A stretch of DNA of 54,395 nt from a virus (lineage: Duplodnaviria > Caudoviricetes): positions 1 through 54,395 of IMG/VR virus record IMGVR_UViG_3300042922_001429; one strand, 5' to 3'. The translations under genes and the position numbers were made by a program. The notes beneath the pieces were generated by a model. The model was not told where the DNA came from. It saw only the letters and a list, made by a program, of their open reading frames with translations, and made no database searches. Below are positions 1,047-2,685 of the stretch, piece by piece; positions within the stretch are counted from its first letter, which is position 1, and each line of letters starts with the position of its first letter.

Positions 1047-1062
1047 TCCGTATAAATACGGA
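1047..1062. promoter_or_regulatory. Palindromic operator candidate TCCGTAT-AA-ATACGGA
   Basis: 7-bp inverted repeat in the divergent intergenic region. Confidence 0.5.
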
Positions 1063-1184
1063 ATCTTCATTTATTTTTGTTTTTTAGTACTTTTAGTTTT
1101 GAATTATTAATATATTAGCACCAGAATATAACAACTTTGTTTTGTAATTAAGTATTTTTGTTAAGAATTCAAAAATAAAATTCT

Positions 1185-1493
1185 ATGAAAGCAAAAGTAA
1201 TATTTTTAAGCGCAGTGAGTGCTGTGGTTGTTTATTCATGCACAACTGAAAGAGATGAATATATTAAAGAAAATCCGACTGAGAATCAAAAAATTGAACA
1301 GTTGGAAATGAAAAAACTAAAACAAATTAAGCCAGGAAATACTCAAGCAAACAAAACGGCAAGTGATACTATAATTGCAACTCCGCCAGCTTCACCACAA
1401 AGTGGTTTTGAACTTGATCCTGGTTTTGAAATAAACCCTAATCCTGATCCAAATGAAGGCGACGACCCAAAGAACGTACCTCCTAGAAAATAA
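1185..1493 (+). CDS. Lipoprotein with disordered Pro/Asp/Asn-rich C-terminus
   Basis: Lipobox VVYSC, acidic patch TTERDE after Cys, tail NPNPDPNEGDDPKNVPPRK. Confidence 0.8.
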   Translation: MKAKVIFLSAVSAVVVYSCTTERDEYIKENPTENQKIEQLEMKKLKQIKPGNTQANKTASDTIIATPPASPQSGFELDPGFEINPNPDPNEGDDPKNVPPRK

Positions 1494-1995
1494 ATTAAAA
1501 AAATCCAAAACTACACTTTATGGGTCGTTATTACTCTTAATATCGGCCTTCTTGCCATGTATTGATGTATTACTCAAAATAATATATCCTCCAATGGCTG
1601 AAATGAAAGATTCTCGTGATGTTTTTGTAACTGTTGACATCTGGCTAACTACATTATATCTATCTCCAGCAATTATTATTTTGGCTACAACATTAAAACC
1701 ACACCCTAAGCTTTATTTCTTTCCGTTCTTTACTTTTTTTTACACTGCTATTGTTTATTTCGCTCCGATACTAGGCTACAAAATTGACTTTTTGCGCTTC
1801 AATAGTTGGATGGCTATTGTAGGGGCTGTTGTTTGTTCGGTTCTATATATGCTTCTCCTGAAATACATTAGATTACATACGCTAGAAGAAAATTCTCATG
1901 AATTGATGTTGCAGGATATGAAAGAAGAGTATAATAAATTAAGAGAAGAAAATCAAAAATTAAAGTCACAAATAAACACACAAAATAAAAACTAA
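1453..1995 (+). CDS. 4-TM membrane protein with C-terminal coiled coil
   Basis: Four hydrophobic segments, then LQDMKEEYNKLREENQKLKSQIN. Confidence 0.75.
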   Translation: MKATTQRTYLLENKLKKSKTTLYGSLLLLISAFLPCIDVLLKIIYPPMAEMKDSRDVFVTVDIWLTTLYLSPAIIILATTLKPHPKLYFFPFFTFFYTAIVYFAPILGYKIDFLRFNSWMAIVGAVVCSVLYMLLLKYIRLHTLEENSHELMLQDMKEEYNKLREENQKLKSQINTQNKN

Positions 1996-1996
1996 T

Positions 1997-2239
1997 ATGA
2001 ATGACCAGGAATATTTAATGCTGAAAAAAATGATTGAAAAAAATAGACGGCTTTTCAAAAAAGAAATTATCGACTACGATGAGTATTTTGAGAACCACAA
2101 TATGCTGATGGAAAAAATAAAAGATTCTATTTTACTAATGAATAATTGTGATATTTCATTTCTCGCTGCAATCGATTTAGATGACTGTTTAGAGAAGTAT
2201 CGAAAAGGAATTATGATTGTAAAATTTAATATGAATTAA
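1997..2239 (+). CDS. Small cytoplasmic hypothetical protein
   Basis: 80 aa ORF starting 1 nt after the previous stop. Confidence 0.7.
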   Translation: MNDQEYLMLKKMIEKNRRLFKKEIIDYDEYFENHNMLMEKIKDSILLMNNCDISFLAAIDLDDCLEKYRKGIMIVKFNMN

Positions 2240-2250
2240 AAAAGGAAAAC

Positions 2251-2685
2251 TTATTTGTTTTCCTTTTGTTTTTTATTAGCTCCAACAAATTCCATTACAG
2301 GCTGTAGAGATAAATCTATATAGTCAATAATAATATTCTTATGGTCCTTATTATCCATTCTATGTTGGGCAAGCTCTTCAATTATTCTATTGTTTTGATC
2401 AAAAATCATCTTAAGCTTTTCTTCTATTGATAAAGAGTAGAAATCTATATCAATTTTTTTTTCTAATTTTTTTTCCACTGACAAAACTCCAGTATAGAGA
2501 TATTCTTTTGTGGTAGTCAGTATTTTAGCAATTGTATCTAATTTTAGATCATCAGGCTTTGTAATATCCTCAATCCAATTCTTTAATGTGGTTGGGTGCA
2601 TTTTAGCTTCTCTAGCAAGGGAATTCTTATTATATCCGCTAGAAATCATTCTTTCCTCCAGGCGTTTACCAAATGTCATATTCAT
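2251..2685 (-). CDS. CI-like XRE repressor lacking a peptidase S24 domain
   Basis: N-terminal HTH (FGKRLEERM...SLAREAKMHPTTLKNW...IAKIL...YLYTG); divergent from a cro-like gene. Confidence 0.85.
   Translation of the reverse strand: MNMTFGKRLEERMISSGYNKNSLAREAKMHPTTLKNWIEDITKPDDLKLDTIAKILTTTKEYLYTGVLSVEKKLEKKIDIDFYSLSIEEKLKMIFDQNNRIIEELAQHRMDNKDHKNIIIDYIDLSLQPVMEFVGANKKQKENK

Follow-up and report, generated by a model that had tools for sequence, protein, structure and literature searches.

A three-gene envelope cassette beside the repressor of Weeksellaceae-type prophages: a candidate module coupled to the lysogeny switch

The virus record IMGVR_UViG_3300042922_001429 (a complete record of 54,395 bp with a prophage-type layout, hereafter the window) carries near its left end three small genes that run towards the gene of a helix-turn-helix (HTH) repressor. 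They encode a lipoprotein, a protein with four transmembrane (TM) helices, hereafter the TM protein, and an 80-residue protein (p80), and constitute a tightly coupled unit (Table 1), which together with the C-terminal domain of the repressor (C-domain) stands out among related prophages as a conserved stretch within otherwise mosaic surroundings. We favour, at somewhat less than even probability, the reading that the three genes and the C-domain work together as a single conserved unit of the lysogeny region in Weeksellaceae-type prophages, in the manner of a module that spans the envelope and is coupled to the lysis-lysogeny switch. This reading is preferred because the three translationally coupled products belong to three compartments, because the cassette was never seen lost from this type of repressor and because p80 tracks the C-domain most closely, features that fit a switch-coupled module better than a dispensable moron.

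Architecture and inheritance of the cassette

The positions that a sequence-only reading of the window had assigned to the three genes, together with the 41-nt overlap of the first two and the 11 nt (2240-2250) separating the stop codon of the p80 gene from that of the repressor gene, were all borne out by the table of open reading frames (ORFs). No significant family was found for the lipoprotein, the TM protein or p80 in Pfam, PHROGs, NCBIfam or PADLOC; the TM protein and p80 matched no PADLOC family at E ≤ 1, and the sole PADLOC match of the lipoprotein, to a 666-position PIWI model, was weak and implausible (E 6.8e-4, 16.5 bits). Nor was a description of the cassette found in the literature searched, in agreement with the first impression that this is not a described system.

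Relatives were sought in 401 genomes from the family of Chryseobacterium sp. HR92 (family sample), to which Elizabethkingia and Riemerella also belong, and in 401 genomes of the order (order sample); the label "Weeksellaceae-type" rests on two records (Chryseobacterium sp. HR92 and C. sediminis) and on general knowledge of their family. With the TM-family profile, matches were obtained in 45 of the 401 genomes in the family sample (41 of them at E ≤ 1e-10) and in 20 of the 401 in the order sample. Loci occupying the same places as others (L003, L004, L034-L036, L042, L043) were left out before counting; L005, whose p80 and repressor are identical to those of L002, was kept in the synteny table and omitted from the identity matrices, and loci L066-L095 were compared by coordinates only.

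Besides the window, 28 of 31 loci showed the order lipoprotein gene, overlapping TM gene, small-protein gene and convergent HTH gene, with small proteins of 77-102 aa and HTH proteins of 136-192 aa, and the same four-gene order was found in six of seven further loci, the divergent locus L045 being the exception. Among the 31, the exceptions lay at contig ends (L014, L019) or combined a tandem TM gene with a weak lipoprotein match (L024). L024 (G157:C3:22787-26263) holds two TM-family copies (E 4.2e-23 and 1.5e-20) separated by ~1 kb, and a weak lipoprotein-like ORF stands in this interval. A lack of conserved synteny with repressors, which the sequence-only reading had named as evidence against a link, was thus not observed: nearly all relatives examined carry the cassette next to an S24-less repressor. 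Gene overlaps recur in the relatives, by 37-110 nt between the lipoprotein and TM genes and with spacings from -74 to +2 nt between the TM and p80 genes. The cassette was kept across divergence down to ~15-25% identity, and the left neighbours and cro-position genes of the relatives come from several families that are not related to one another.

A profile of the last 66 residues of the repressor found 38 places in the 401 family-sample genomes, 36 of which were within ~1 kb of a TM-family match on the same contig. The other two were a locus split over two contig ends (G138) and a weak match (E 6e-4) inside a 787-aa frame (G115), and this profile search returned no C-domain clearly apart from the cassette in the family sample. 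Ten genomes had a TM match without a C-domain match; four of these TM matches were weak and partial, and another of the ten genomes is that of L024, where a convergent HTH gene is present whose tail the C-domain profile missed. In the repressor sequences, unrelated HTH domains are joined to C-domains that go with the p80 type. At 40% identity the clusters of the TM protein, p80 and the C-domain largely coincide, in contrast to a shuffled HTH domain: TM cluster B, with eight loci, holds one C-domain cluster and six HTH clusters, and p80 cluster C pairs with TM clusters B and C, with a single C-domain cluster throughout. Pairwise identities correlated at 0.887 for p80 and the C-domain, at 0.864 for the TM protein and p80 and at 0.770 for the TM protein and the C-domain, and at 0.32-0.60 only between the HTH domain and the other parts. 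To judge from these comparisons, the C-domain is inherited with the cassette while the DNA-binding domain is exchanged.

At the junction with the repressor gene, 12 of 29 loci have convergent stop codons that overlap by 8 nt, six have an overlap of 4 nt and one an overlap of 39 nt; in the other ten the stops are 0-11 nt apart, the 11 nt of the window being the widest gap. Twelve loci (L006-L018; for example L006, oriented 2235-2242) share an 8-nt near-palindrome over both stop codons (TTAATTAA in four of them), and most small proteins and many repressors therefore have Asn as their last residue; the junction is flanked by short inverted repeats. The hairpin at the window junction is probably a bidirectional terminator, judged from its stem and T-run; terminator-like sites were found four times against 0.6 expected. 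Such an arrangement could mean that the cassette and the repressor gene are linked at the RNA or DNA level only, by transcriptional interference or antisense control where transcription of the cassette runs into the repressor gene or the other way round, and that the proteins serve an unrelated envelope function (lysogenic conversion). In line with this, the stops of the 29 loci, overlapping or 0-11 nt apart, leave no room for a separate intergenic terminator, and hairpins span the junction in the window and in other loci. We nevertheless regard a link at this level alone as improbable, since a credible bidirectional terminator at the window junction would limit read-through, and since neither the conserved motifs of the three proteins nor the fact that the C-domain, and not the whole repressor gene, travels with the cassette would be explained. 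Within the favoured switch-coupled reading, the convergent transcription may add an RNA-level link.

Predicted proteins and a possible route across the envelope

Database homologues of the TM protein are called from Met48 (133 aa) in eight of 12 cases. Since residues 1-47 hold some of the best-conserved positions of the family (L34, P35 and D38 of an LP..D motif, and P46), and since AlphaFold2 models four long helices (2-44, 59-80, 85-107 and 113-179; mean predicted local distance difference test score, pLDDT, 84), the long form of 180 aa with four TM helices is taken as the real one. The same model upholds the initial description of a protein with four TM helices and a coiled-coil-like end. 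Six Lys or Arg residues fall within residues 1-21 and a K-x-x-R follows the fourth TM helix, and under the positive-inside rule both termini would face the cytoplasm, including the helical tail (~137-180). Six of the seven best-conserved positions (L34, P35, D38, P46, W64 and G108) lie in the periplasmic half, according to the alignment and the AlphaFold2 model. HMMER, run exhaustively against 1.84 billion representatives, returned 15 relatives at E ≤ 0.001, the ESM Atlas yielded unnamed Bacteroidota clusters only, and no fused forms of the TM protein were found. Among the homologues, P0004 shares only 80% identity with the protein of the window but is assigned to a contig of the same length (54,395 bases), and the 100% identical P0002 is assigned to one of 283,090 bases, which may be a matter of labelling. 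Foldseek gave no PDB match at E ≤ 0.001, and the best PDB sequence profiles, an adenovirus fibre matched across 45 residues at E 0.0026 and KwaA at E 0.15, were judged to be chance matches.

The small cytoplasmic protein p80 is predicted to fold as a small helical bundle (pLDDT 86; helices 3-21, 27-47, 54-58 and 65-77), in which Y30 and the C-terminal Asn are conserved. It had no Foldseek match in the PDB at E ≤ 0.001, no PDB sequence profile match and nothing in the ESM Atlas. A prediction of the complex of repressor and p80, run without controls, gave scores of 0.35, 0.14 and 0.22, to be compared with a threshold of 0.32, and so weighs on neither side as regards binding. One apparent fusion (P0027, 259 aa, from a single 1416-nt contig) joins the TM tail and p80 in frame and then degenerates, and was set aside as read-through or an assembly artefact.

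As described at the outset, the lipoprotein has no evident folded domain, being of low complexity apart from three short motifs. It has an acidic stretch after the Cys (TTERDEY), a DTI motif in the body of the protein, and a Pro-rich basic tail (DDPKNVPPRK) at the C-terminus (...NEGDDPKNVPPRK). In an alignment of 28 sequences M1, C19, P95 and P100 are invariant, D61 with the DTI motif is nearly so, and the remainder is variable and of low complexity; the stretch after the Cys reads C-S-N-D-R-D-E-E or C-T-T-E-R-D-E, with variants. The C-terminus had been portrayed as variable and pro-peptide-like; the tail is instead the best-conserved segment of the 28 sequences, finishes with basic residues in almost every one of them, and carries the same motif in prophages of differing immunity. 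It occurs in subtype variants (GDPKDVPPRK, GDPTTITPPKR, IIPPGDVKPPKP, ETIDPTKPDRPK and others). It is also more conserved than the N-terminus of the TM protein encoded by the same DNA, so that of the two overlapping frames the constrained one seems to be that of the lipoprotein. Several conserved positions on the periplasmic side of the TM protein are acidic and the end of the tail is basic, which would be compatible with a contact between tail and receptor.

The sequence-only reading had drawn an analogy with arbitrium, in which case the C-terminal peptide of the lipoprotein would be cleaved, diffuse and be sensed by the TM protein as a report of lysogen density. The tail variants do match the TM subtypes (DPTTITPP in 3/3 loci, DPKDVP.PPRR in 5/5, IIPPGDVKPPK in 4/4 and ETIDPTK.DRPK in 9/9), the conserved TM positions face the periplasm, and the cassette shares with arbitrium (AimP/AimR/AimX) and other RRNPP systems a precursor with a signal peptide and an informative conserved C-terminus, encoded by the lysogeny control region. 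It has, however, no tetratricopeptide repeat (TPR) receptor, small secreted pro-peptide or hypervariable code, its candidate receptor is a protein with four TM helices, and it belongs to Bacteroidota rather than Bacillota. In a code for communication one would expect diversification, whereas no segment of the protein is better conserved than the tail, which is common to prophages of differing immunity; the precursor is lipid-anchored, with no associated cleavage motif, protease or peptide importer, and a Pfam scan of the neighbouring products gave no TPR family of the AimR/RRNPP type at E ≤ 1. With a conserved tail and nothing that indicates cleavage or release, the analogy was not supported, and a diffusible signal of this kind appears very unlikely.

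Overlapping genes for a Pro-rich lipoprotein and a membrane protein with a coiled-coil end also bring to mind the spanins Rz/Rz1, and a spanin-like accessory of lysis, pairing an outer-membrane lipoprotein with a membrane protein, was considered. The gene order is nevertheless reversed with respect to Rz/Rz1, the TM protein has four TM helices and a coiled coil predicted to be cytoplasmic instead of a single TM helix and a periplasmic coiled coil, and the holin and endolysin genes (48481-50016) lie 47 kb from the cassette (1185-2239), which always abuts the repressor gene. A role in lysis was rejected on this distance from the lysis genes, and we give it next to no credence.

The repressor consists of an N-terminal HTH of the Cro/C1 type (~1-67) and a helical C-domain (~75-144). 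It matched HTH families only (Pfam HTH_3, E 6.9e-5; PHROG repressor and regulator families down to E 3.9e-9), with no Pfam match to Peptidase_S24 at E ≤ 1, which confirms the early remark that this domain is lacking; searched against the PDB, the C-domain profile gave generic coiled coils only (E ≥ 0.044). Repressors of the CI/LexA type are inactivated through a RecA-cleavable S24 domain. The present repressor differs from them in having no C-terminal Peptidase_S24, and must therefore be inactivated by another route; the UmuD-like S24 protein of the window has, in turn, no HTH.

A more specific form of the switch-coupled reading, which we consider possible rather than probable, is an undescribed trans-envelope pathway of a tethered ligand, a receptor with four TM helices and p80 as effector, controlling the S24-less repressor through its oligomerisation domain. 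In the mechanism proposed for the favoured reading, the disordered, lipid-anchored lipoprotein would present its conserved Pro-rich basic tail to the acidic, periplasm-facing side of the TM protein, whose cytoplasmic tail would then hold or release p80. In turn, p80 would act on the helical, presumably oligomerising C-domain of the repressor, and the state of the envelope could thereby influence the maintenance of lysogeny or induction. The anatomy, the conservation, the exclusive pairing of cassette and C-domain and the exchange of what surrounds them are observed; each contact between proteins, their topology, the signal's direction and expression of the cassette in lysogens are what we infer in this scheme.

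Regulatory sites and prophage setting

The features of the window are collected in Table 1. The candidate promoter of the cassette was recognised by its match to the Bacteroidetes consensus (-33 TTTG / -7 TAnnTTTG); its AGTATTTTT block falls in invariant columns of the alignment of relatives, and the element is probably the cassette promoter.

Table 1. Position of the cassette, its regulatory sites and other features in the window
Feature	Position	Strand	Remarks
Three leftward genes	1-941	-	diverge from the cassette
Palindrome TCCGTA-TAAA-TACGGA	1047-1062		divergent promoter region
Cassette promoter, candidate	1135-1160	+	TTTG at 1135-1138, TATTTTTG at 1153-1160
Lipoprotein gene	1185-1493	+	102 aa; signal peptide, lipobox Cys19
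TM protein gene	1453-1995	+	180 aa; 41-nt overlap with lipoprotein gene
p80 gene	1997-2239	+	80 aa; begins 1 nt after the TM stop
Hairpin	2240-2267		11-bp stem; spans the 11-nt gap and the repressor stop codon; followed by a T-run on the + strand
Repressor gene	2251-2685	-	144 aa, HTH; convergent with p80 gene; near left end of window
14-bp palindrome ATCTAATATTAGAT, one mismatch	2536-2549		inside the repressor ORF
14-bp palindrome ATCTAATATTAGAT, exact	2724-2737, 2754-2767		between repressor gene and rightward early genes
First rightward early gene (cro position)	2871-3146	+	91 aa
SbcC-like ATPase, RecT and MBL-fold nuclease genes			rightward early genes, after the repressor region
Structural genes			right of the early genes, before the lysis genes
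Holin and endolysin genes	48481-50016		holin phrog_14914, E 3.8e-60; endolysin phrog_7, E 2.7e-41
UmuD-like S24 protein gene	50190-50660 (within 50190-52584)		NCBIfam PRK10276, E 3.1e-26; no HTH
UmuC-like Y-family polymerase gene	in the range 50190-52584 or 53244-54395		IMS, E 2.8e-31
SRAP protein gene			between lysis genes and integrase; E 3.3e-17
Tyrosine integrase gene			right end of window

The palindrome at 1047-1062 had been proposed as the operator of the module. It is real and unique, CCGTA-N(0-20)-TACGG having a single match in the window where 0.06 would be expected (one match was reached in 5 of 100 shuffles), and its motifs TACGG-N4-CCGTA and/or CCGTA-N4-TACGG were found in 14 of 29 upstream regions of the cassette, with none in the largest subgroup. 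The operator role was not upheld. The TACGG-N4-CCGTA class has 8 and 15 sites in two host (Chryseobacterium) genomes against one in the control, the motif occurs beside repressors with differing HTH domains, and the palindrome lies 33-48 nt upstream of a minus-strand promoter-like TAATTTTG box (1014-1007) and ~105-120 nt upstream of the promoter box of the cassette. Because of this abundance in host genomes, these differing HTH neighbours and the nearby leftward box, we take the palindrome to be bound by a factor that is of the host or widely shared, and that may serve the leftward promoter, and do not take it for an operator of the switch. The copies in the two host genomes (G001 and G002; loci L046-L065) lie in varied intergenic contexts, with a spacer that is mostly purine- or A-rich (for example GAAA), and are probably the site of a transcription factor. 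A link to the SOS response was considered and dropped: the motifs reported for Bacteroidetes SOS regulators are GGA-N5-TCC as well as CTAA-N5-TTAG, and TTAC-AAATT-GTAA for E. anophelis (PMC8565304), and TACGG-N4-CCGTA fits none of these, Weeksellaceae variants lying outside the comparison.

The 14-bp palindromes, with three matches against 0.64 expected and none elsewhere in the window, are probably the operators of the repressor. The copy inside the repressor ORF is ~175-220 bp from the other two, a spacing that could allow looping or autoregulation. The product of the first rightward early gene has no Pfam or PHROGs family, and homologues occupy the same position in several relatives.

The products of the three leftward genes are a peptide of 54 aa with a single TM helix, a secreted protein of 156 aa and a protein of 100 aa that belongs to phrog_9710 (E 3.9e-20, PHROGs). 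In related locus L001 the host genes stop ~2.5 kb left of the cassette, and in L002 a serine recombinase lies ~4 kb to its left; the cassette therefore sits in an accessory region between the prophage end and the repressor. At the prophage edge of L001, 3308-4319 hold two minus-strand genes, one of which may be a Panacea/SocA-type antitoxin with a membrane partner, a candidate label only, and the early region of the same locus has a 503-aa ORF (9049-10560) with several dozen tandem NQV[RGWE] tetrapeptide repeats. At the other end of the window, the UmuD-like, UmuC-like and SRAP genes between the lysis genes and the integrase are translesion-synthesis cargo, and among the rightward structural genes there are two leftward genes (27262-28378, minus strand), possible morons, one with an Api92-like DUF1281_C ferredoxin-like domain (E 8.4e-12). 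When window positions 1-8000 were compared by blastn with 50,697 phage records, only the RecT and SbcC-like genes were matched and nothing at 1-4000, and scans of viral contigs with the TM protein, the repressor and one alignment as queries gave no relative.

Exclusion, known systems and the lysogeny switch

Superinfection exclusion, named as the alternative from the start, stays a strong rival that we judge possible, if doubtful. The lipoprotein, at the surface or in the periplasm, and the TM protein would prevent a phage from adsorbing or its DNA from entering, or would detect its arrival, as in Rex-like or superinfection exclusion (Sie)-like exclusion or in abortive infection, p80 would be a cytoplasmic sensor or a regulator of the membrane component, and the cassette would lie beside the repressor only as a part of the prophage transcribed in lysogens. 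Consistent with this, the cassette is served by a promoter-like element of its own, without an operator of the repressor, as is typical of morons. It stands close to the end of the prophage, amid variable genes of the secreted-protein and toxin-antitoxin-like kinds, and encodes envelope products, among them a lipoprotein with an acidic motif like those of surface export. On the other side, no PADLOC family was significant and the best solved relative by sequence is the insignificant KwaA; accessory exclusion genes are usually sporadic, whereas the cassette accompanies the C-domain in 36 of 38 places amid variable flanks; and a simple block of entry does not need a cytoplasmic partner such as p80, the part whose identities follow those of the C-domain best.

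Precedents for exclusion include Ltp, a lipoprotein encoded in the lysogeny module of S. thermophilus phages, and P22 SieA, both reported with their own expression in the lysogen (PMC3952083; PMC10883804), lambda RexAB, and the pairs of a membrane and a cytoplasmic protein of Sbash and CarolAnn (PMC6426596; PMC6426606). The cassette resembles Ltp-type and other Sie proteins (TP-J34 Ltp, P22 SieA, T5 Llp, Cor) in placing a prophage lipoprotein or membrane protein in the lysogeny region, and it shares with the Ltp type a signal peptide with lipobox and a gene within the lysogeny module. These Sie proteins are single proteins with folded domains, sporadic among related phages; the cassette differs in its three coupled genes, its disordered lipoprotein with short motifs and its strict tie to one C-domain, and the lipoprotein, with no PHROG or Pfam lipoprotein or Sie family at significance, showed no homology to Ltp with its folded repeat domains.

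A close likeness in layout is lambda RexA/RexB, an inner-membrane protein with four TM helices and a cytoplasmic protein encoded directly beside the repressor gene. The Rex proteins are expressed in lysogens, exclude other phages and bias the switch; RexA is described as binding CI and assisting the transition to lytic growth, with RexA modulated by the membrane protein RexB (bioRxiv 10.1101/2021.04.19.439022). By analogy with Rex, coupling to the switch can coexist with exclusion. The cassette, however, has no likeness to Rex in sequence or fold (no Rex Pfam match at E ≤ 1, nothing by Foldseek), adds a lipoprotein, and converges on the repressor gene instead of being co-transcribed with it. 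RexA, moreover, has ~280 aa against the 80 aa of p80.

In RcsF-IgaA and Lpo-PBP a lipid-anchored, tethered protein reaches a multi-pass partner in the inner membrane and reports the state of the envelope, a functional analogy only. These are host systems that feed phosphorelays or synthases and not a phage repressor, and a Pfam scan gave no homology to them. KwaA of Kiwa, a sensor of ~195 aa with four TM helices and a cytoplasmic partner, gave the best sequence-profile match of any solved chain related to defence; this match covers 50 residues and is not significant, and the cassette has no PADLOC Kiwa model and no KwaB-like partner.

Several observations weigh against coupling to the switch. 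Most characterised membrane-protein and lipoprotein genes beside prophage repressors serve exclusion or defence. Linkage alone would lead one to expect co-inheritance of neighbouring DNA, and linkage with homologous recombination at conserved flanks would produce the same pattern; the immunity "bubble" of lambdoid phages likewise ends inside the repressor gene; the window, L001 and L002 share one p80 and one TM cluster at 40% identity, yet fall into three C-domain clusters. The match between tail variants and TM subtypes is inseparable from linkage, because the coding sequences of the lipoprotein and the TM protein overlap. Foldseek and PDB profiles revealed no recognisable anti-repressor or DNA-binding fold in p80. 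The candidate 14-bp operators are absent from the cassette promoter; no regulatory link in that direction is visible, and control of the cassette by the repressor is not supported. Finally, the acidic stretch after the lipid-bearing Cys, as had been noticed early, resembles the surface-export signals reported for Bacteroidetes (SDDDD, SDDFE and C-X-K-(D/E)2; PMC5080379). A surface-exposed lipoprotein could not contact a partner in the inner membrane; it may lie either in the periplasm or outside.

Little has been learnt of how temperate phages of Bacteroidota maintain lysogeny and how they leave it, and many of their repressors have no RecA-cleavable domain. The module described here is a concrete candidate for the missing input, with four parts that are conserved and found only with one repressor C-domain. 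Should the cassette prove to be an exclusion system instead, it would represent a new three-protein type without a relative in current defence catalogues. If the trans-envelope pathway proves true, prophages of Bacteroidota would judge lysogeny or induction by the state of the envelope, such as damage, superinfection or surface contact, and not through RecA.

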